Shown one piece after another: positions 4,005 through 62,396 of a stretch of DNA of 64,000 nucleotides; position 1 is the first letter of the stretch; each line of letters starts with the position of its first letter. The translations under genes and the position numbers were made by a program. The notes under the pieces are model-generated. The model had not been told where the DNA came from. It was given only the letters and a program-made list of their open reading frames with translations, and did no database searches. Source of the DNA: an uncultured Porphyromonas sp. (lineage in GTDB: Bacteria; Bacteroidota; Bacteroidia; Bacteroidales; Porphyromonadaceae); NCBI RefSeq assembly GCF_900539765.1, contig NZ_UQDF01000002.1, one strand, 5' to 3'.

Positions 4005-4185
4005 CTGAGCGTCCGTTGTGTCAAGCGAAACGAGCGTCCCTACAGATCGAGGTTACAGCGTTTGATGAATGGAATTGTCGTGCTGACGTAGCTTGTGTAG
4101 GGGCGGACCTACGTGTCCGCCCGCAGAATAGACTGCACTCAGGTGAGGACGGGCGGACACACAGATCCGCCCCTACGGTGGAAGC
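4005..4185. repeat. GCGTCC/GGACGC hairpin-pair repeat (family 3), locus A
   Basis: Contains gagcgtccgttgtgtcaagcgaaacgagcgtccctaca, then two stable hairpins gtaggggcggacctacgtgtccgccc and gggcggacacacagatccgcccctacgg. Shares motifs GCGTCCGTTGTGTCAA(A)GCGA and GCGTCCCTACA with the loci at 17.5 and 60.4 kb. Confidence 0.5.
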
Positions 4186-4366: not shown

Positions 4367-5386
4367 TTAGTCTAGTATGGTGACCCAGCCGTGTGTATCA
4401 GGCTCGTCGCCGTACTGGATACCACGTAGCTTGTTGTAGAGCTTCTCGCTGATAGGACCAGGCTTACCATCCTTAGAGATCTCGTAAGTCTTGTTCTCAT
4501 CGAGGTCATCGACACGTAGTATTGGGCTGATGACAGCAGCTGTACCACAAGCACCAGCCTCCTCAAAGGTAGCTAGCTCCTCCTCAGGTACATGACGACG
4601 CTCTACCTTCAGACCGAGATCCTCAGCGAGCTGCATCAAGCTCTTGTTCGTGATAGAGGGTAGGATAGAGGTAGACTCAGGTGTGATGTAAGTGTTGTCT
4701 CTAATTCCGAAGAAGTTAGCTGGACCGCACTCATCGATATACTTCTTCTCCTTAGCATCGAGGAAGAGGCAAGCGCTGTAGCCCTTCTCGTGAGCTAGGA
4801 CGGTAGGTACCATACCAGCAGCATAGTTACCACCCACCTTGATCGTACCAGTACCCAGAGGAGCGGCACGGTCATAGCCACGCATGATAGCCATAGGAGT
4901 AGGCTTGAAGCCCTCCTTGAAGTAAGGACCTACGGGAGATACGAAGACGATAAAGAGATACTCAGGAGCTGGCTTGACACCTACCTGCTCACCTAGTCCG
5001 AGTAGGAGTGGGCGGATGTAGAGTGAAGCACCGCTCTCGTAGGGAGGGACGTAGTCCTTGTTGAGCTCGACAGCCTTCTTGACAGCCTTGATAAAGAGCT
5101 CTTCGGGTACGGGAGCCATGACGACACCCTCAGCTGAGCGGATCATACGCTTAGCATTCTCCTCGACACGGAAGAGGCGGATCTTACCATCCTTACCACG
5201 ATAAGCCTTGAGACCCTCAAAAGCCTCCTGGCCGTAGTGCAGACAGGTAGCGCCCATGTGGAGCGTGATCGTCTCCTGTGAAGTGACCTCTAGCTCACCC
5301 CACTTGCCATCACGATAGTAACAGCGTACGTTGTAATCGGTCTTGAGGTAACCAAACCCCAATGATGACCAGTCCAAATTCTTCAT
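4367..5386 (-). CDS. ilvE: branched-chain amino acid aminotransferase
   Basis: Class IV aminotransferase homology along the full length (..EAFEGLKAYRGKDGKIRLFR.., ..VGGNYAAG..). Start moved to the internal Met (MKNLDWSS..) at residue 33 of the supplied ORF. Confidence 0.85.
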   Translation of the reverse strand: MKNLDWSSLGFGYLKTDYNVRCYYRDGKWGELEVTSQETITLHMGATCLHYGQEAFEGLKAYRGKDGKIRLFRVEENAKRMIRSAEGVVMAPVPEELFIKAVKKAVELNKDYVPPYESGASLYIRPLLLGLGEQVGVKPAPEYLFIVFVSPVGPYFKEGFKPTPMAIMRGYDRAAPLGTGTIKVGGNYAAGMVPTVLAHEKGYSACLFLDAKEKKYIDECGPANFFGIRDNTYITPESTSILPSITNKSLMQLAEDLGLKVERRHVPEEELATFEEAGACGTAAVISPILRVDDLDENKTYEISKDGKPGPISEKLYNKLRGIQYGDEPDTHGWVTILD

Positions 5387-5544: not shown

Positions 5545-5740
5545 ACACGTAGTTGGCTGAAAAAGTCGATATCCACGTGGGGATTCTCAAATCTCCACGT
5601 GGAAAATAAAAATTCTCCACGTGGAGGCGAAATAAAACTTCGGAGGAATCAAATGATACTTCGGAGGAATCGTTTTGCGCCTACGTGGAGAATAAAAAAT
5701 AGCCACGTGGAGATTTGAGATTTTCCACGTGGATATTGTC
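5545..5740 (+). repeat. CACGTG-box composite palindromic element, copy 1
   Basis: Three tCCACGTGG boxes at ~22-bp spacing, a central tandem repeat (aaacttcggaggaatcaaatga / tacttcggaggaatcg), then three boxes in mirror orientation. Terminal inverted repeat ATATCCACGTGG .. CCACGTGGATAT. Lies in the divergent ilvE/thrS upstream region. Confidence 0.75.
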
Positions 5741-5917
5741 CTCTTCCTAAAAAAAAGTACACAGTTGGAAAGGTGTTACTGAGACGGTACACGGATCGTC
5801 TTTGGCGGGATGGAGAGTGAGAGCTTTTTTGTACCTTTGTGGCGTATATACATTTTTGAGATTGTTGCAGAGAGCAAGAGTCTCCTCATTATATTAGTCG
5901 ACTACAACATACCACTT

Positions 5918-9367: not shown

Positions 9368-9393
9368 AACGACGGGCTCTCTAATACAAAGCC

Positions 9394-9450
9394 TAGGCGC
9401 AAGACACAGGACGCACGATGTCGCCTTGACGACATCACGATCTTGAGTCT
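9394..9450 (+). terminator. long imperfect hairpin downstream of rplT; family-3-like GGACGCACGAT motif
   Basis: ctaggcgcaagacacaggacgcacgatgtcgccttgacgacatcacgatcttgagtcttgcgtctag has outer stem ctagGcgcaagac/gtcttgcgTctag and inner stem gatgtcg/cgacatc. No U-tract. Confidence 0.4.
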
Positions 9451-9582
9451 TGCGTCTAGTCATTAATCTATCTTCTATCGAGTCGCTATGGCTATGGTCA
9501 CCACACCGCATCAGCTGTAGCAGACTTAGTGTGGCGACACACTCCTTCTGTCATCTTACAACACTCTTCAATCCATAATAGT

Positions 9583-17405: not shown

Positions 17406-17532
17406 ACTCTTTTATAGGGAAACAAACGCTTTAGCAGAAAAAGAGCTCAACTCCGCAAATCAATTAGCTCAAGGAGATGCATAATCCGCTGTGTAGTCAT
17501 TAGGATCCTGACCGTGTAGCGATCTTGTAACT

Positions 17533-17645
17533 CGTCTCGCTTTGATACAACGGACGCTCGACCGTGCGTCCCTGCACGTCGTTACTCGTCAGTACTCCAA
17601 GAGAAGGCGTCCATCAATCTAACAGTAGATCGACGGACGCCTTGT
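17533..17645. repeat. GCGTCC/GGACGC hairpin-pair repeat (family 3), locus C, inverted relative to loci A/B
   Basis: cgtctcgctttgatacaacggacgctcgaccgtgcgtccctgcacg is the reverse complement of the GCGTCCGTTGT(G/A)TCAAAGCGAGA motif plus the GTGCGTCCCT(A/G)CA motif. Second hairpin ggcgtccatcaatctaacagtagatcgacggacgcc. Confidence 0.45.
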
Positions 17646-21068: not shown

Positions 21069-21252
21069 AATTATAAAGCTTAGAAGTTAGTATTGTTGGT
21101 TTGTTATCATTTCGCTCTCTTTAGATCTCTCGTTGAAGTCTCTCGTTGCTTCAACACCTTGTACCACAGAAGATGAAACAAGCAAGAAACAATCACCATA
21201 CCACAAAGATAGTTTTTTTTGCAAACAACAAAGCGCTTGATGGTAGACGAAA

Positions 21253-21281
21253 CGTCTAACCTCTAACTTCTAATCTCTAAT
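21253..21281. repeat. degenerate heptamer array (TCTAAYN)x4, reverse orientation of the RNTTAGA arrays
   Basis: cgtctaacctctaacttctaatctctaatcc, directly abutting CACGTG element copy 2. Confidence 0.55.
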
Positions 21282-21287
21282 CCGATC

Positions 21288-21452
21288 GTCACGTGGAAAA
21301 TCTCAAATCTCCACGTGGCGGTTTTTCATTTTCCACGTGGAGACGAAATGATTCCTCCGAAGTTTCATTTGATTCCTCCGAAGTTTTATTTCTCGCCTAC
21401 GTGGAGATTTTTTATTTGCCACGTGGCGATTTGAGAATTTCCACGTGGGGAT
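21288..21452 (-). repeat. CACGTG-box composite palindromic element, copy 2
   Basis: cgtcacgtggaaaatctcaaatctccacgtgg..ttccacgtggagacgaaatgattcctccgaagtttcatttgattcctccgaagtttt..cctacgtggag..gccacgtggcgatttgagaatttccacgtgggg. Central tandem in opposite orientation to copy 1. Confidence 0.75.
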
Positions 21453-21628
21453 CAGCTTTTTTTGTGGCAAAGCGTTTCGGGCATAAGAGATTCTGTTCAG
21501 AATGTGCTAGTGAGTGGAATATGCTGAAGGCGGCATATTTTGCTCTCAGCAGTTATTTCAGTAGATTTGCGTTAGAATCGACTGGGCGCATCCAGAGGAC
21601 TGAGCCCCCTAAGTAAGACCATTTACCG

Positions 21629-40149: not shown

Positions 40150-40320
40150 CTCTCCACGTGAGGAATCACAAATCTTCACGTGGATATTTTTTATTCTCCA
40201 CGTAGGCGAGAAAGATTTCCTCCGAAGTTTCATTTGATTCCTCCGAAGTTTCATTTCTCGCCCACGTGGAGAATTTCTATTCTCTACGTGGATATCTCTA
40301 ATTTTCCACGTGGATATTGC
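40150..40320 (-). repeat. CACGTG-box composite palindromic element, copy 3
   Basis: ctccacgtgagg..cttcacgtggat..ctccacgtaggcgag..ttcctccgaagtttcatttgattcctccgaagtttcattt..cccacgtggag..ctacgtggat..tccacgtggatattg. About 215 bp upstream of gdhA. Confidence 0.75.
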
Positions 40321-41928: not shown

Positions 41929-42022
41929 AGCTTAGACCTTATTTGTTTGCCTTTTATAAGGGAGGGTCGCTATTCACTCAGCGTGAGTAGCGACCCTCTC
42001 TCTATCTTGTGTCTACGCTCTT

Positions 42023-42050
42023 GAGACTGTTGACTTTTGCGATAGTCTCC
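42023..42050. repeat. GAGACT-N15-AGTCTC conserved-loop hairpin, solitary copy between convergent gdhA and ung
   Basis: gagactgttgacttttgcgatagtctc. Same stem and loop (gttgacttttgc.a.ag) as the 59660 and 60692 copies. Confidence 0.55.
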
Positions 42051-42055
42051 TCTTA

Positions 42056-42721
42056 TCACCAGCGGATCGGCTCGTAGCCGTATCGCTGTAGGTAAGCGTT
42101 GGCCTTGGAAAAGTGCCGACAGCCGAAGAAGCCCCGATGAGCCGACAGCGGACTAGGATGAGGCGCCTCGAGGATGAGGTGCTTCTGGCGGTCGATCAGA
42201 GCCCGCTTACAGCGCGCATAGTTGCCCCACAGCATGAAGACTAGATGCTCTCTCTGGCTACTCAAGAGTGAGATGACCTGATCGGTGAAGGTCTCCCACC
42301 CGCGTCCCTGATGCGAGCCAGCCTCGTGTGCCACGACCGTGAGCGTAGCGTTCAGAAGGAGGACACCCTGACTGCACCATGGCGTCAAATGCCCGCCGAC
42401 GATTTGCGACGGATGCCCTAGATCGGAAGCAATCTCGGTCAGTATATTGCGCAAGCTGGGTGGCACCTCGACACCTTCTGGCACAGAAAAGGCTAGCCCC
42501 TCAGCCTGCCCCACACCATGGTAAGGATCTTGCCCGAGGATGACGACCCGCACATCTTCGAAGGGACAAAGGTCAAACGCTCGAAAGATCTGTCCCCCAG
42601 GGGGGTAGATCCTCTTCGTCTGGTACTCCGAGCGCACAAAAGAGGTTAAGGTCTCAAAGTAAAACTTCTCGAACTCCTCCTCCAGCACCCGATGCCAGCT
42701 AGGCTCTATACGTACATTCAT
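42056..42721 (-). CDS. ung: uracil-DNA glycosylase
   Basis: ..VVILGQDPYHG.. water-activating loop and ..HPSPLSAHRGFFGC.. C-terminal motif. 221 aa. Confidence 0.9.
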   Translation of the reverse strand: MNVRIEPSWHRVLEEEFEKFYFETLTSFVRSEYQTKRIYPPGGQIFRAFDLCPFEDVRVVILGQDPYHGVGQAEGLAFSVPEGVEVPPSLRNILTEIASDLGHPSQIVGGHLTPWCSQGVLLLNATLTVVAHEAGSHQGRGWETFTDQVISLLSSQREHLVFMLWGNYARCKRALIDRQKHLILEAPHPSPLSAHRGFFGCRHFSKANAYLQRYGYEPIRW

Positions 42722-56658: not shown

Positions 56659-56917
56659 TCCCCCGTCCCGCTCCCCTTCAAGGTCCTTTTCCTGCTTCCC
56701 CTCAAGGTGCTTAGGATGCCAATCGAGAGCAAAGCCTAATTAATCGACTCTGCAAAGGTAATATAGGAGACTACAAAGCGTGAACTCTGATGCGCTGAGC
56801 GTCTCTCTGTAGTCTCCAAACGTCTCAACAGAGCGTAAAGGAGCGCGACACGACAAACGAGTCCTGTCAATCTTCTATATTATGCGCACCATCGCTGATG
56901 CGAGTCCGAGCTTGCTA

Positions 56918-57885
56918 CTACTCAGTAGCTCGTCCTAGTAACGTGTCTACATCCTTCTGGATATCGCGCAAGGCAGCCCACAGACGCTCTGGAACAATAG
57001 ATATGTCCCAATTCTTATCGGTGGCATCACCTAGATGGCCTCCCATCATGCAGCAGGCCTCCTCCTCTTGCTCAGCGGTGAAGAGATGGAGCTCGCCAGC
57101 AACTGATCCTCTTCGATCGGGCAGCCCGTCCACCAGCCTACGCGCTTGCTCGTTATCAAGAGCAGTCCCGTCGAAGCGGACGACACGTAGGTTAGGACAA
57201 TCCACAATCCAAATAGACCCCAACTTACTGTCTCTAGCATCCACCTCCTCCAAGGCTTCACAGCCACAGATGTCCAACTCTTCCAAAGTTTTGCTCGGAC
57301 AGTGCAGGCTCTTTAGCTGCTTACAGCTTTGCACCATGAGTCTACTGAGTGGGCTCTCAGGGAGCTTTAGCATCGCCAGCTCCTTGTTGCCACTGCAGAG
57401 TAACTCCCTTAGATCAGAGCAAGCTGTCAGATCCAAGCTAGTCAGCTGAGTGTCCATACAGTTAATCTCTTTTAGATTAACACAGTGCGACAGGTCTAGG
57501 CTGGTCAATTGGTTGTTATGACAATCTAGCTGTGTCAAGGCAGCATTCTTAGAGAGGTCCAAGCTCGTTAGCTTATTACCATGGCAATATAGCTTTTCAG
57601 GTTGACAGAGTGCGAGACATCCAGGCTTACGATACTATTGTCGCCATACGTGCCACAATTGAAGCTTGTCAGCTCCCCACGGATGACCACCTCCGAGGAG
57701 GTCAACGTGTAGTGATAATACACACCACCCGTCTTGGGAGACTCAGCAACGCCCTCAACGGTGACCTCCCCTACGGTCCTCAGTCCGAGGCAAAGTTTTC
57801 CTGAGCCTGTTGCATTATCCACGCTCAGCCGTATGATAGATTGCTCTGCTGCTTGAGAAGAGAGATTAGCGTCTTTAATATTCAT
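56918..57885 (-). pseudogene. leucine-rich-repeat protein disrupted by a frameshift (two ORFs 57568-57885 and 56918-57562)
   Basis: Upstream ORF ends ..SLDVSHSVNLKSYIAMVIS*. The adjacent frame continues the same LRR register (..GNKLTSLDLSKNAALTQLDCHNNQLTSLDLSHCVNLKEINC..). A single-nt indel near 57575-57590 would restore one ~320-aa LRR protein. The downstream ORF begins with a non-ATG start in the supplied track. Confidence 0.55.
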
Positions 57886-57917
57886 CTGTTTATTCCTCTA
57901 TTATGGTTTGTGCTTGT

Positions 57918-58901
57918 CTATAGCTTACGCCAGTGATCGATCATGGCGGTTAGGAACTTCTTGCGCTGAGGATCTGCAATACTTGCAAAGGGTGCAGCAC
58001 CGATGTCCTTTAGAGCTTTTGCAAACTGCTCATCAATCTTTTTTTCCCGGCTCTTATCTCCTTTTATAGGAGGCGTTGGTTTGACATGGTTAATGAGCAT
58101 CTTATACTCACCCTCGGTCAGCAGGAGTGAGAAGTTGCCACCTTCCAGCTTGCCCATCCACCATAGGTAAGCATCTAGTATGTCAAACTGTTGTAGACCA
58201 CAGAATAGAGCTGTAGATCCCTTGCCAAAGATCACCTCTCTCAGCTCATTGAGTGCTGAGATATACTCTCCGATGCTTCCGTATTCTAGCACCTGTTTTT
58301 GTTGGGGCTTTAGTCCCATAGCGCTCATCACCTTACGATATGACTCCCTAGCTAGTCTGTCATATATCGGGAAGCCGAGCGGGTATCTCTTCGTATCCAT
58401 CAGCATGCAGTAGTAGGCATACTTGCTAATGAGGGACTTGAGGGTGGCCCCTGGCGTCCCAATCTTCTGAATCCCATACGATGCCTCAAAGATATTCTTA
58501 CCTATGGTCGTTGGCTTACCTAGGTTTTGCAAAACGATGTCATAAAAGTAGTCATTGGGCAACTTTCCACTCTTACCAGCGAACTGCGTGGTCTCATGAA
58601 TAATCCTCTCCGCCAGCTGCTCCAGCGAGAAGTAACTATAGGCGGCATTCGTAGAGTAGTAAGAGTTGAGGACTACAAGACGCAGGAGTATATGCTCCTG
58701 AACATGACTATGACCCGGTCCCTGACCTTGATCTAGCCCCTGACCCTGTCCTTGAACTCCTTTTCCACTGAAGAGTCTCGATATGATCGCCCGCTGATTA
58801 TTGTACGGGAGACCTTTCGTATCGATCTTTCCTTTATTCGCTGTGATAGTCTGCGCTAGGAGCGTCATGACCTCTCTAATCTCTGAAGCAGTTATTGCCA
58901 T
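57918..58901 (-). CDS. hypothetical protein, 327 aa, no recognisable domain (orphan in a lower-GC islet)
   Basis: Coding-like ORF with a Gly/Gln-rich low-complexity linker (GKGVQGQGQGLDQGQGPGHSH). Local GC is lower than neighbouring housekeeping genes. Confidence 0.5.
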   Translation of the reverse strand: MAITASEIREVMTLLAQTITANKGKIDTKGLPYNNQRAIISRLFSGKGVQGQGQGLDQGQGPGHSHVQEHILLRLVVLNSYYSTNAAYSYFSLEQLAERIIHETTQFAGKSGKLPNDYFYDIVLQNLGKPTTIGKNIFEASYGIQKIGTPGATLKSLISKYAYYCMLMDTKRYPLGFPIYDRLARESYRKVMSAMGLKPQQKQVLEYGSIGEYISALNELREVIFGKGSTALFCGLQQFDILDAYLWWMGKLEGGNFSLLLTEGEYKMLINHVKPTPPIKGDKSREKKIDEQFAKALKDIGAAPFASIADPQRKKFLTAMIDHWRKL

Positions 58902-59040
58902 TTCGATTCTGTATTAAAGATGAATGTAATAGTGTCGTGTGGAGCGGCTAGCTTATGGGCATATCACTCTTCTTTGGGTGGGGTAGCCTCATGAGACACG
59001 CCCCCTAGTACGTGGACGGTCTCATGTGAGTCTCCTTTGC

Positions 59041-59505
59041 TTAACCATAAGAGTTTGCTGTTGCGTCTGAAGCCCTAGAGCCTCTCGGCGTCTGGAGGAT
59101 CTTGTCCGCCTTCTCCTTGTTCTCCAAGAGGTGGTCGACCAACTTCGATCCTAAGGTCTGGGTGTTCCAAGACTCATCATAAGGGAAGCCCATCTTATCT
59201 GAGATTATGCGGAGTTCCTCTTTGACATTCCCGTGCCCACACTCCTTGTAGATCTCGATCTGTTGGGTAGGTAGCCTTTTAACTACGAGATCTCCGAAGT
59301 GAGCCTCCTTGCCATCGCCAAACTCCTTAACGAGCCTGCGACCGAGGTCTCGCATATTCCACTTCTCATCTACGGGGAAGTCCTTCTCTTTTGCAATACC
59401 GCGCATAGTCTGGTAGAGGTTACTAGGTACGCACAAGACATCTACATGTCCATTGTCGGCGATCTCGATGATATACTCGCCTGCGATTACTGATTTTCTA
59501 GCCAT
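59041..59505 (-). CDS. hypothetical protein, 154 aa, with internal tandem duplication of a ~35-aa module
   Basis: IAKEKDFPVDEKWNMRDLGRRLVKEFG and ISDKMGFPYDESWNTQTLGSKLVDHLL align as a duplicated motif [IS]..K..FP.DE.WN...LG..LV. No known domain recognised. Confidence 0.5.
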   Translation of the reverse strand: MARKSVIAGEYIIEIADNGHVDVLCVPSNLYQTMRGIAKEKDFPVDEKWNMRDLGRRLVKEFGDGKEAHFGDLVVKRLPTQQIEIYKECGHGNVKEELRIISDKMGFPYDESWNTQTLGSKLVDHLLENKEKADKILQTPRGSRASDATANSYG

Positions 59506-59659
59506 TTGGTTTTAGTGTTATTAAGATGAATATTCATTGTTGATTAATCGGTAAGTCTTACTCCTATTATTATATATAGGAAAAAAGCACCGCTTATATA
59601 AGTCTCTCGGCACACGCTCCGCCTGCACTGATGCCCTCCTCGTATGAGGATACGACAAA

Positions 59660-59690
59660 GGGAGACTATTGCAAAAGTCAACAGTCTCCC
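59660..59690. repeat. GGGAGACT-N15-AGTCTCCC conserved-loop hairpin (left copy of an inverted pair)
   Basis: gggagactattgcaaaagtcaacagtctccc, followed by a second palindrome caatcttgcaagcaagattg. Confidence 0.6.
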
Positions 59691-59854
59691 AATCTTGCAA
59701 GCAAGATTGTCTAGACTTTGCAGAAAGGATGAAGCGCAAGACGCCGAGGGTGAGGTCTGAAGGGAACATACCTCCGTATGTGACCGAAGCCGAATCCCGA
59801 AAGCAACACAGCGATTCGCCTTTATGCAACAGTCCCAAAGGGGCTGGTGCGGAG

Positions 59855-59960
59855 CGAAGCTCGGCACAAGCGCATAGGGTGCGACCATCGGGGCGGACGC
59901 TTGTTGCGTCAGCCTGCGAGTCGTCTGATAAGAATGATGAACCGCCCCTGTACAGCCGCC
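59855..59960. repeat. family-3-like GC-rich hairpin repeat inside the gene-free region
   Basis: ggggcggacgcttgttgcgtcagcc .. ccgcccctgtacagcc shares the GGGCGGAC/GTCCGCCC and GGACGC..GCGTC motifs with loci at 4.1, 17.6 and 60.4 kb. Confidence 0.35.
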
Positions 59961-60275
59961 TAGAAGGCGCCCTGCGCGTTTTCGGGGGGGGATGGCAAAA
60001 CGCTCGCCGTCAGCGAGATGCGACGGCAGAGAGGCTCTGAAATGGCTCTACATCCATGTATAGACGTAGGGTGGAGAGGGTTGATTTCACCACAATGATA
60101 TGTAGTGAAGCAGTCTCTCTGAGACCTAGCGGTACTATAGTGATAAATAGTACCAGCTCTTTCGATACTATACGCAGTCAGAGCCATGTGGGCTGTCACT
60201 GTTTGTTACTTTTCTGTTGAGAGGGGGGCCTCTCGTAGGTAATGTTCTGCACAAAGATAAAACTTTATTTCAAGT

Positions 60276-60327
60276 CGTGCAAGAGAGGAGAGATTAGATG
60301 TTAGAGATTAGAAATTAGAGGTTAGAA
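60276..60327. repeat. degenerate heptamer tandem array (GANRTTA)x7
   Basis: gagattagatgttagagattagaaattagaggttagaagttagagcgag. Confidence 0.6.
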
Positions 60328-60384
60328 GTTAGAGCGAGACGTGTAGCCCGTATAGTGATGCACAGATAGTGTCTAGCGAGAGGA

Positions 60385-60545
60385 TGTCCGTTGCCGAACC
60401 ATCCAACGTGTAACGGGTGTAGGGACGCACGATCTGTGCGTCCGTTGTGTCAAAGCGAGATTGCGTCAAGTTTTGTATTCGTCCTGGCTGGTTCGAGAAC
60501 GGACGCACGAGCCGTGCGTCCCTACAACCGTTACACGTCTCACGA
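60385..60545. repeat. GCGTCC/GGACGC hairpin-pair repeat (family 3), locus B
   Basis: acgtgtaacgggtgtagggacgcacgatctgtgcgtccgttgtgtcaaagcgagattgcgtcaag..gaacggacgcacgagccgtgcgtccctacaaccgttacacgt. The two ~40-bp arms are inverted copies and each arm is itself a hairpin. Confidence 0.5.
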
Positions 60546-60559
60546 GGAAATCGGAAAGC

Positions 60560-60735
60560 TCCAGGGAGGAAACGGAATTTCCCCACGGAGGACCGAAATA
60601 AAAGTTCGGAAGAATGAAATGAAACTTCGGAAGAATGAAATCGAAGTTCCGAAGAATTTTTGCCTCCGTGGAGAGTCTCGCTTTCTTCCGTGGAGACTGT
60701 TGACTTTTGCAAGAGTCTCCCGTGGACAATTCTGA
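60560..60735 (+). repeat. CACGTG-box composite element, copy 4 (diverged: CCACGG/CCGTGG boxes, triple central unit)
   Basis: ..ccccacggagg..aaagttcggaagaatgaaatgaaacttcggaagaatgaaatcgaagttccgaagaat..cctccgtggagag..ttccgtggagactg..cccgtggac. Same architecture as copies 1-3 but with the G of CACGTG lost in the boxes and cggaAgaa instead of cggaGgaa. Confidence 0.55.
60692..60721. repeat. GGAGACT-N15-AGTCTCCC conserved-loop hairpin (right copy, inverted relative to 59660)
   Basis: ggagactgttgacttttgcaagagtctccc is nested between two CCGTGG boxes of element copy 4. The loop is the reverse complement of the 59660 loop. Confidence 0.6.
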
Positions 60736-60896
60736 TTTTCCTCGAGCTGTGGGGAGTTGATTTGCGGACAGGGTATAGGTACTTTCAGGCTATGGCAAAC
60801 AAAATGAGCGTGCTGACTGTACTTAGTCAACACGCTCACGGTTGGGGTGTAGTGTGAGGGGCGATGGGCCACTACACTATTCCTTATAACGAGTGC

Positions 60897-62396
60897 TTAC
60901 TCAAAGGGGAAGGTCTTGATGAGCTCCTCTGCCTTGTTCATCTGCTCGTACATGACGACGTCATCCTCGACGCGAGGACATACCTTGCGGAAACTAGCGA
61001 GGAAGCCCTCGAGACGCTCCGAGGTCTTCATAGGACGACGGAATTCGATCGCCTGAGCTGCATTGAGTAGCTCGATCCCGAAGAGACGATAGAGGTTCGC
61101 GATGAGTGGCATAAGCTTGGTTGCCGCGTTGGCACCCATAGAGACGTGATCCTCCTGCCCATTGCTGGAGACGATGCTATCGCTAGCTGCTGAGTGGCAG
61201 TACATCTTATTTTGGCTGACCATAGCGGCAGCAGCATACTGCGGGATCATGAAGCCACTGTTGAGTCCAGGGTTGGCAACGAGGAACTCAGGCAGGTCGC
61301 GTAGACCAAGGATGAGCTGAGCGACACGACGCTCTGAGATATTGCCTAGCTCAGCGAGTGCTATAGCGAGGAAGTCGTAGACGATCGCTAGAGGCTGGCC
61401 ATGGAAGTTACCACCTGATACGACCATATCGTCATCGGGGAAGACGGTGGGATTGTCCGTAACAGAGTTGATCTCAGTCTCTACTACACTGCGCACGTAA
61501 GCGATAGCGTCACGCGAAGCTCCGTGAACCTGTGGCACACAGCGGAAGCTGTATGGGTCCTGTACCTGGGGCTTGGGCTTAGCAATCATCTCGCTGCCCT
61601 TGAGTAGCTCACGCATATGGGCTGCGACCTGTATCTGTCCCTGGTGTGGACGTATCTGATGCAGACGATCATCGTAGGGAGCGTCTAGTCCAGCGAACGC
61701 CTCTAGTGAGAGTGCTGCGCACCAGTCAGCGGCTAGCTTGAGGCGCTCTGCCTGTATGAGGGCATAGACACCATGTGAACTCATAAACTGAGTACCATTG
61801 AGCAGGGCTAGACCCTCTTTGCTCTTGAGCTTGATGGGCTCCCAGCCAAACTTAGCGAGGACCTCGCAGGAGGGAAGCTTTTCACCCTTGTAGCGTACCT
61901 CGCCGTAACCGATGAGCGGTAGGAAGAGGTTAGCTAGAGGAGCTAAGTCACCTGAAGCACCTAGCGAACCGCGGTCATAGACGATGGGTAGGACATCCGC
62001 ATTGAGCATATCAACGATGCGCTGTACGGTCTCTACCTGTACACCACTATTGCCGATCTGCAGGGCATGAGCCTTTAGAAGGAGCATAAGGCGAACGATG
62101 GGCTCTGCGACCTCGTCACCACAGCTACAAGCGTGGCTCTTGACAATGTTTTCCTGAAGCTTGGTGAGCTGATCAGGAGAGATGGTGCGGTTGCAGAGTG
62201 AGCCAAAGCCCGTGGTAACACCGTAGATAGGCTTGTCGACCTCCTCGACCTTGCGGTCTAGGTAGTTACGACAATGCTCGATACGCTTGACAGCCTCTGG
62301 TGAGAGGGTTAGCTCGAAGTGGTTTTCTAGATACTCTCGGCATAGCTCGATGGTGAGCTGCTCGCTACCGATGGCGAATGATTTGCGTGCTGACAT
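60897..62396 (-). CDS. hutH: histidine ammonia-lyase
   Basis: MIO-forming ..GSLGASGDLAPL.. motif and aromatic ammonia-lyase family along the full length. 499 aa. Confidence 0.9.
   Translation of the reverse strand: MSARKSFAIGSEQLTIELCREYLENHFELTLSPEAVKRIEHCRNYLDRKVEEVDKPIYGVTTGFGSLCNRTISPDQLTKLQENIVKSHACSCGDEVAEPIVRLMLLLKAHALQIGNSGVQVETVQRIVDMLNADVLPIVYDRGSLGASGDLAPLANLFLPLIGYGEVRYKGEKLPSCEVLAKFGWEPIKLKSKEGLALLNGTQFMSSHGVYALIQAERLKLAADWCAALSLEAFAGLDAPYDDRLHQIRPHQGQIQVAAHMRELLKGSEMIAKPKPQVQDPYSFRCVPQVHGASRDAIAYVRSVVETEINSVTDNPTVFPDDDMVVSGGNFHGQPLAIVYDFLAIALAELGNISERRVAQLILGLRDLPEFLVANPGLNSGFMIPQYAAAAMVSQNKMYCHSAASDSIVSSNGQEDHVSMGANAATKLMPLIANLYRLFGIELLNAAQAIEFRRPMKTSERLEGFLASFRKVCPRVEDDVVMYEQMNKAEELIKTFPFE

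Follow-up and report, generated by a model that had tools for sequence, protein, structure and literature searches.

The 64-kb stretch of Porphyromonas DNA analysed here (the window) carries short structured repeats in three intergenic regions. Each lies between two co-directional minus-strand genes: an aminotransferase gene and the gene for a 732-aa InlB-repeat protein, oorC and topA, and hutH and a 154-aa ORF. A sequence-only reading of this DNA had noticed a shared motif at these places, and the sharing is well above chance. The 16-mer GCGTCCGTTGTRTCAA occurs in three exact copies, at 4009 (+), 17557 (−), and 60438 (+), against 0.04 expected from shuffles, and with up to two mismatches allowed, CGTGCGTCCCTRCA is matched five times where 0.8 would be expected.

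A covariance model (R1), built from 90 distinct units of the family, was applied to the window without filters and recovered only three intact units; all other matches below E = 1 were reverse readings of the same three palindromes. The positions of these units and of the less well-preserved copies are collected in Table 1.

Table 1. Repeat units and related features in the 64-kb window.
Feature	Position	Strand	Evidence and remarks
Rearranged type-1 REPIN remnant	4009-4062	+	Exact motif at 4009, rest read from the sequence; missed by R1
Subtype-2 REPIN	4097-4176		GTAG-GGGCGGAC..GTCCGCCC at 4097-4122 (plus strand); 26-nt spacer; inverted copy at 4176-4149 (minus strand)
Lineage-specific insertion	17443-17600, boundaries ± ~3 nt		Solo unit, decayed second unit, and ~55 nt of unique sequence
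Solo REP unit	17535-17591	−	R1 63 bits, E 4e-11
Decayed "long-loop" REP unit, in tandem, before the REPIN	60336-60403	+	~37/46 positions agree with the long-loop consensus CTGTAGGGACGCACGGCTAGTATCTAGCGAGAGGGCGTCCGTTG, by eye; inverted repeat I25; missed by R1
Left REP unit of the REPIN	60404-60460	+	R1 71.4 bits, E 7.5e-13; GTAG 60419-60422; stem 60423-60430 with 60436-60443; loop GATCT; tail GTTGTGTCAAAGCGAGA
REPIN spacer between the inverted units	60461-60483		Read from the sequence; loop of the long hairpin
Right REP unit of the REPIN, inverted	60484-60540	−	R1 51.8 bits, E 8e-9
Core of the right unit, GTAGGGACGCACGGCTCGTGCGTCC	60525-60501	−

Repeat copies in the window

At the hutH locus, two units face each other as an inverted doublet. 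The arms, 60406-60446 and 60498-60538 (inverted repeat I12), are 41 nt long and 88% complementary, and each is itself a hairpin, as the sequence-only reading had described. The left unit folds with a dG of −10.2 kcal/mol (z −5.0) and the right unit with −11.5 kcal/mol (z −4.5). The whole stretch 60330-60545 folds at −57.6 kcal/mol (z −7.3), with the doublet at 60404-60540 forming one long hairpin.

The solo unit between oorC and topA has GCAG in place of GTAG and one A·A mismatch in its stem, as though the A and T variants described below had been combined, and its hairpin is weakened (dG −6.6 kcal/mol, z −0.7). This locus had been drawn as a single inverted copy reaching from 17533 to 17645. 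The solo unit accounts for one part of that interval, while the other part, 17603-17644, is the native oorC terminator stem, which is present also in strains that lack the repeat.

The 4.0-kb locus holds two different elements. The GGGCGGAC..GTCCGCCC stems that had been pointed out there are real; they form an inverted doublet that carries the GTAG tag and represents a rarer subtype. Its two hairpins fold at −9.9 and −8.3 kcal/mol (z about −2.9), and an orthologous copy of the doublet lies at positions 871-950 of another contig (L003). In the neighbouring remnant, which has lost its hairpin, two 3' arms survive, the first with its tail and the second with CTAC, together with a piece of spacer reading GGTTACAGCGT. 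The gene context given earlier was right in being intergenic for all copies and misread in part, since the 732-aa minus-strand gene has the 4.0-kb element upstream rather than downstream.

The family had been thought to occupy five or more loci, whereas the exact motif is found at three. Two candidates were rejected. The hairpin after rplT (9393-9459) is strong (z −4.75) but unrelated, having only an 11-mer in common with the repeats. The interval 59855-59960, taken earlier for a degenerate copy, shows no significant fold (z 0.07), no model match, and no homologue at other loci. Because the window has few copies and some decay is evident in them, the REP system may be quiescent in this lineage.

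Anatomy and subtypes of the REP unit

Aligned copies define a unit of about 57 nt with the order GACGTGTAACGGTT - GTAG - GGACGCAC - loop of 4-5 nt - GTGCGTCC - GTTGTGTCAAAGCGA. Its core of 24-25 nt has a stem of 8-9 bp formed by the GC-rich palindrome GGACGCAC/GTGCGTCC, and core hairpins fold with a dG of −10 to −11.5 kcal/mol (z −4.5 to −5). Written as an oligonucleotide, the REP sequence is GTAGGGACGCACGGTCGTGCGTCC. The bases G17, T18, A19, and G20, which abut the 5' side of the stem, are invariant in 90 of 90 distinct units, a set gathered with a pattern that contained GTAG and tolerated up to one substitution. GTAG was also found in subtype 2 and beside distant RAYT genes (see below), both of which were located independently of the collection pattern.

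Pairing within the 8-bp stem is retained in 98.9% of cells among the 90 distinct units, and in 98-99% across both unit sets. Stem pair 7 is A-U in 68 of the 90 units, U-A in 19, and C-G in one; in 150 model matches, A-U occurs 97 times and U-A 32 times. We show here that the stem of this REP family is kept by compensatory change, the covariation lying essentially at one position, where it may represent a few events multiplied by copying. The lack of such change had been named beforehand as something that would speak against a structured-RNA or REP interpretation. Compensatory change is equally expected where a single-stranded DNA hairpin is recognised by a transposase.

Several variants of the unit exist. 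One further palindromic stem reads GTGACGCACG/CGTGCGTCAC, and the stem of subtype 2, likewise palindromic, reads GGGCGGAC/GTCCGCCC. Subtype 2 is rarer than type 1, and the two stand in tandem in two contigs (L002 and L038). The "long-loop" form contains about 13 extra bases and has the consensus given in Table 1.

Distribution and arrangement in related genomes

The extended 20-base motif GCGTCCGTTGTRTCAA(N)GCGA was searched in one genome per species across 185,579 species. It gave 49 matches, all in P. uenonis or uncultured Porphyromonas, and many of these loci hold two or three motif matches 50-250 nt apart. Several of the matching contigs are shorter than 1 kb and consist nearly entirely of repeat. 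Identity between the window and P. uenonis 60-3 is 89-90% over coding DNA, indicating that the window comes from a sister species.

In 406 kb of sequence picked for its motif content, the model found 179 units; the 64-kb window, which is an unbiased sample, has three loci. The units fall into 75 clusters, of which 73 are intergenic. A fixed order was observed: "><" occurred 17 times, ">><" 11 times, and "><<" nine times, and "<>" alone never. An array comprises at least one forward copy, the spacer GTTGTGTCAAAGGTTACAGCGTCGTGGTTTTAACGGGGAC, and at least one inverted copy, and in tandem arrays direct copies with a period of 51-68 nt are followed by inverted copies. A CRISPR-like array was ruled out because the sequences between tandem units are themselves conserved. 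The genes flanking the clusters are in tandem in 27 cases, divergent in seven, and convergent in six, with no enrichment at 3' ends.

Filled and empty sites

Insertion polymorphism between strains, proposed earlier as a point to check, is seen in the oorC-topA spacer. OorC is a 181-aa protein that occurs in identical form in many metagenome contigs, 10 of which were fetched. The insertion site is filled in the window and in two contigs (L061 and L064), and empty in seven contigs with identical OorC. In the empty sites, CCCTTTTTTCTGC comes immediately after the oorC terminator stem. About 155 nt long, the insertion has the oorC terminator stem on one side and the T-run of that terminator on the other, so that the two are separated. 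It is not a clean REPIN, and its tail of about 55 nt was found nowhere else. No target-site duplication was seen at this filled site, a single filled/empty pair in which the copy is partly decayed.

The hutH locus is variable as well. Among strains with identical HutH, one (L054) has the ~4.2-kb stretch of the window including the REPIN, four (L053, L055, L056, and L058) are without it, and another contig (L057) has a different neighbour altogether. At the orthologous place beside hutH, P. uenonis 60-3 (L032) carries four forward units and one inverted unit, so that array size differs between the window and this strain.

A RAYT gene flanked by the same repeats

No RAYT gene was found within the 64-kb window. 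In a related contig (L006), listing the ORFs beside the arrays revealed a gene at 4564-5061 for a 165-aa protein with HUH and tyrosine motifs. Its sole NCBIfam match was NF047646, "REP-associated tyrosine transposase" (RAYT; E 1e-14), at 54.6 bits, below the curated (equivalog) cut-off of 80 bits that all the RAYT homologues likewise miss. Pfam Y1_Tnp scored 20 bits, under its gathering score of 23. All 30 aligned homologues match NF047646 and no other NCBIfam model (best E 2.5e-17). More than 1000 homologues exist. Close homologues bear the name "transposase [Porphyromonas uenonis]" or "[uncultured Porphyromonas sp.]", and some distant ones carry the JGI name "REP element-mobilizing transposase RayT".

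In the 30 homologues, MPNH79-x-H81 and Y147-I-x-x-N151 are invariant and align to the HUH and tyrosine motifs of E. coli TnpA-REP (PDB 4ER8). This protein was also the best match in a profile search of solved structures (6e-5), ahead of IS200 transposases (0.04-0.06). A single-sequence structure search gave spurious matches to repeat proteins and found TnpA-REP only at E 0.92. W94, Q95, and R104 of TnpA-REP are the residues that contact GTAG (PMC6006769). They align with W126, which is invariant, and with Q127 and R136, which are conserved in at least 90% of homologues. E100 of TnpA-REP is replaced by the invariant D132 in the Porphyromonas proteins. A regular expression for HUH and YxxxNP, applied to six-frame translations of all loci, gave no match because the tyrosine motif here is YIENNV.

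The gene has these REPINs on both sides in seven contigs (L006, L050, L051, L052, and L073-75). In L050, for example, the gene at 423-920 lies between REPINs at 257-346 and 966-1055. Each RAYT locus has one homogeneous loop variant in its flanks. The pattern persists in more distant relatives: a REPIN with the same GTAGGGACGCACG..CGTGCGTCC core precedes a 55% homologue located inside a type I restriction-modification operon, and GTAG-GGATGCACC-cag-GGTGCATCC, another palindromic variant, precedes a 51% homologue. Among homologues with at least 77% identity, the gene and its flanking REPINs occur in at least four contexts (frd, a FimA-like gene, mutS/uvrA, and BamH).

Two apparent features of these loci were discarded. 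RAYTs of 121 aa that seemed truncated were gene-calling artefacts, the full 165-codon frame being open in L073. L051 and L057 have the frd neighbourhood in common, but with an identity of only 91% they belong to different species.

Interpretation and alternatives

GTAG-type REPs and REPINs are defined in the literature by a GTAG before a GC-rich palindrome and by the inverted doublets that such units form (PMC2817692, PMC3116915, PMC3733652). We therefore conclude, with high though not complete confidence, that the repeats are GTAG-tagged REPs (repetitive extragenic palindromes), mostly arranged as REPINs, in which two inverted REPs enclose a spacer, and frequently multiplied in tandem. We also conclude that the Porphyromonas asaccharolytica/uenonis clade harbours them as non-autonomous selfish DNA, with a cognate RAYT in sister genomes. 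Elements of this kind are already known, and the repeats represent neither a new RNA gene nor a terminator nor a new class of element. The earlier description of REP-like structured elements is borne out in this more specific form.

The RAYT is most likely the enzyme that spreads these repeats. In the proposed mechanism, the RAYT, a TnpA-REP-type Y1 HUH nuclease, would recognise the folded hairpin together with the 5' GTAG on single-stranded DNA. It would then cut and rejoin the single strand, and doublets would spread in this way. Landing sites would be the intergenic "dead zones" that extend from a terminator to the next promoter. For the Porphyromonas enzyme, we infer both its role in moving the repeats and the chemistry of single-stranded DNA cleavage from the literature on E. 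coli TnpA-REP and IS200/IS605. Any effect of the REPs on transcripts would be a by-product. It is conceivable, if rather unlikely, that insertions home to host terminator hairpins resembling the REP stem: the arm of the oorC terminator has ACGGACGCC where the REP arm has ACGGACGCA, and the insertion point falls precisely at the junction of that stem with its T-run. Along similar lines, several RAYT paralogues in one genome might each maintain their own REP loop variant.

The sequence-only reading had suggested that the hairpins serve as terminators, stabilise mRNA 3' ends, or encode a small structured RNA, which would make them RNA elements under selection for a host function. The hairpins are indeed stable and GC-rich, their pairing is kept by compensatory change, and they are intergenic and mostly downstream of some gene. 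REPs of E. coli are known to affect mRNA decay (PMC3733652). However, neither strand shows a T-run behind the stem; the sequences there are GTTGTGTCAAAG and CTACAACCGTTAC. A terminator scan of 59500-60900 flagged the hutH terminator (60839-60804) and none of the REP hairpins. Transcription of hutH and oorC should mostly stop before the repeats, because each gene has its own stem-plus-T-run terminator (that of oorC at 17603-17644) upstream of them. The seven clusters between divergent genes and the lack of 3'-end enrichment also speak against such a role, as does the variable presence of the repeats among strains whose neighbouring proteins are identical. Rfam gave no match at the gathering score in the whole window and none at E ≤ 1 in 59500-60900. 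A promoter scan found no sigma-70-like promoter, Bacteroidota promoters being outside the model of that scan. Moreover, perfect two-strand symmetry and the fixed "><" order suit a DNA element. Taken together, these observations make selection for an RNA function very improbable.

The nearest alternative is that the 165-aa protein is an ordinary autonomous transposase of the IS200/IS605 type, with the hairpins as its ends and the doublets as deletion derivatives (palindrome-associated transposable elements), without a domesticated REPIN-RAYT partnership. It stays alive because the gene occurs together with REPINs in at least four contexts among close homologues, a behaviour like that of insertion sequences. 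The 55% relative within a restriction-modification operon and the single homogeneous loop variant around each RAYT locus also fit it. We nevertheless consider it improbable, since NCBIfam assigns the RAYT model alone and no IS200 model, TnpA-REP outranks the IS200 transposases among solved structures, and the GTAG tag and the GTAG-contact residues are hallmarks of RAYTs. In addition, the loci first fetched contained 179 non-coding units against one gene, and no TnpB partner was seen. The repeats could also have arisen by deletion from a DDE insertion sequence with terminal inverted repeats, making them conventional MITEs of the sort represented by BrickBuilt and MITE464 in P. gingivalis. Porphyromonas genomes do contain several MITE families in which tandem repeats occur internally (PMC4596501). 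The element termini are inverted, GACGTGTAAC...GTTACACGTC, and IS5-type terminal repeats (GAGACTGTTG...) lie close by at 59660-59689 and 60692-60721. Yet none of the terminal repeats given for insertion sequences and MITEs of P. gingivalis resembles these termini (PMC4596501), and each "terminal repeat" is itself a GTAG-tagged hairpin. The filled oorC-topA site is without a target-site duplication, and the gene that the repeats flank encodes a Y1 transposase rather than a DDE enzyme. This explanation is hardly credible.

Implications

The assignment to REPs and REPINs gives a mechanistic name to conspicuous repeats of P. asaccharolytica/uenonis, bacteria linked to colorectal cancer and bacterial vaginosis. 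REP arrays explain why draft assemblies of these genomes break at such sites, and REP sites are hot spots of strain-level rearrangement, as in the variable hutH-recG region. There are also two warnings for annotation: ORFs called across REP regions are spurious, and the "transposase" WP_007365601.1 and its relatives are RAYT-like. Should homing to terminator hairpins be true, terminator stems would be systematically uncoupled from their T-runs, and operon read-through would be rewired in a human-associated anaerobe.

Comparison with known systems

An earlier description of this REP family for Porphyromonas was not found in the literature. Di Nocera et al. (2013) reported GTAG repeats in Proteobacteria, Cyanobacteria, Chloroflexi, and the PVC superphylum, and for Bacteroidetes listed only CGTC-tagged repeats (PMC3733652). 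The present family is a clear example of a GTAG-REP with its RAYT in Bacteroidota, where that 2013 survey had CGTC-tagged repeats only. Quentin et al. (2018, PMC6006769) describe RAYTs of subclass 2.4 (Bertels Group 4) as plentiful in Cyanobacteria and Bacteroidetes. These RAYTs are characterised by the motifs NH[IFV]H, WQ, and YIxNNP, and their canonical long REPs are tagged 5' GT[AG]G (PMC6006769). Porphyromonas is not named in the accessible part of PMC6006769 and its supplements. By its motifs NHIH, WQ, and YIENNV, the Porphyromonas protein appears to fit subclass 2.4, with Val replacing the Pro of the tyrosine motif and a length of 165 aa against a subclass mean of 194 aa.

The MITEs of P. 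gingivalis (BrickBuilt and MITE464/PgRS) carry 12-nt terminal repeats of the IS5 type and are bordered by target-site duplications, and DDE transposases are thought to move them; they have no sequence similarity to the present repeats, no GTAG-tagged hairpin, and no Y1 transposase (PMC4596501).

Similarity to E. coli TnpA-REP (PDB 4ER8; Messing et al. 2012, PMC3479197) is remote, at E 0.92 with a single sequence and 6e-5 with a profile. Nevertheless, its HUH motif, catalytic Tyr, N119, W94, Q95, and R104 align with conserved residues of the Porphyromonas protein, E100 being Asp in the latter.

Close parallels exist with the GTAG-tagged REPs and REPINs of Proteobacteria, including the REP/BIME elements of E. 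coli and those of Pseudomonas fluorescens (Nunvar et al. 2010, PMC2817692; Bertels and Rainey 2011, PMC3116915; Di Nocera et al. 2013, PMC3733652). Both have a 5' GTAG, a short GC-rich palindrome, and compensatory stem variants; both form extragenic inverted doublets that fold into a long hairpin; and in both, the RAYT gene lies between its own REPs and insertion leaves no target duplication. The Porphyromonas family differs in its host phylum, Bacteroidota, and in its longer unit of about 57 nt, whose flanks GACGTGTAACGGTT... and ...GTTGTGTCAAAGCGA are conserved. In the BIMEs of E. coli, REPs alternate and are regularly spaced, whereas the Porphyromonas arrays consist of direct tandem copies on either side of a doublet. 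The "long-loop" variant with its insertion of about 13 nt is a feature of Porphyromonas.

REPs at RAYT loci

At each of the RAYT (REP-associated tyrosine transposase) loci L050, L051, L052 and L073-75, the flanking REPs, which are GTAG-tagged palindromic units, uniformly carried a single loop variant (GGCTC, GGTCT or GATCT). Several loop variants were found side by side in single genomes, e.g. that of P. uenonis 60-3. This pattern may stem from the presence of several RAYT paralogues that each maintain a separate REP population, or from local homogenisation. Downstream of the L073 RAYT gene, tandem repeats (three to four copies, period ~182 nt) contained a REPIN, i.e. an inverted REP doublet, together with a copy of the promoter-proximal sequence upstream of RAYT.

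The association extended to divergent homologues. In a type I restriction-modification operon (L069), a RAYT homologue sharing only 55% identity is inserted between hsdS and hsdR, and it was preceded by a REPIN retaining the GTAGGGACGCACG core. A homologue of 51% identity (L071 and L072, 1400-1500) had a single GTAG-GGATGCACC/GGTGCATCC hairpin ~70 nt upstream of the start codon. The REP core thus persists through much of the divergence of the protein.

REP insertion at the oorC terminator and the rplT hairpin

At oorC, a REP-containing insertion lies exactly between the terminator stem and its T-run, which is displaced by ~155 nt. The terminator arm ACGGACGCC is similar to the REP arm ACGGACGCA. 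This position might alter how much transcription reads through into topA, or might point to a target preference.

The long hairpin after rplT, which the sequence-only reading had grouped with the REPs, was rejected as a family member; it is unrelated despite an 11-mer in common. It folds with a dG of −19.2 kcal/mol (z = −4.75), and no T-run was present at this hairpin.

Coordinates of the features, in the window unless a locus is named
Feature	Window position	Other loci	Description
recG-hutH variable segment	about 56900-60800		~4.2 kb
ORFs of this segment	56898-57449, 57568-57885, 57918-58901, 59041-59505
~180-nt repeat	59655-59845		terminates in the 30-nt palindrome
~170-nt palindromic element	60546-60670, 5560-5746, 21290-21461, 40153-40317	L027 1638, L030 3985	CCACGTGGAG...TTCGGAAGAAT
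Heptamer minisatellites	60275-60334, 1517-1590, 21251-21282		(TTAGAGN)n
30-nt palindrome	59660-59689, 60692-60721, 5858-5885, 42004-42057		GGGAGACT(A/G)TTG...CAACAGTCTCC
REP-containing insertion	17443-17600
oorC terminator stem	17603-17644
rplT hairpin	9393-9459		outer stem 13 bp, inner stem 7 bp
55% RAYT homologue		L069 1300-2060
Tandem repeats		L073 2866-3660	period ~182 nt

Variable segment between recG and hutH

The segment between the convergent recG and hutH genes is strain-variable. It carries at least four repeat families, and its four ORFs had no Pfam match. Four contigs encoding an identical HutH protein are without this segment, and contig L057 has another neighbourhood in its place.

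The ~180-nt repeat recurs at at least nine further Porphyromonas loci with 92-97% identity, and in three strains with the identical HutH protein (L055, L056 and L058) it lies directly upstream of recG. A MITE is one candidate identity for this repeat, a promoter/leader module another.

The right end of a REP unit directly borders the ~170-nt element, with the identical junction ...GTTACACGTCTnCC|GAGGAAATCGG... in the window and in the Porphyromonas loci L027 and L030. These appear to be different loci, because the neighbouring ORFs differ. The shared junction suggests nested or targeted insertion, or co-mobilisation. The heptamer minisatellites directly adjoin REP arrays in the window, and likewise in L008, L020, L021, L025 and L026.

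The REPIN, the heptamer array and the ~170-nt element all lie between two copies of the 30-nt palindrome that are separated by 1002 nt. From their sequence, we read these palindromes as putative back-to-back junctions of two IS5-type terminal inverted repeats (cf. those of ISPg4/MITE464, GAGACTGTTGCA / CGCAACAGTCTC; PMC4596501).
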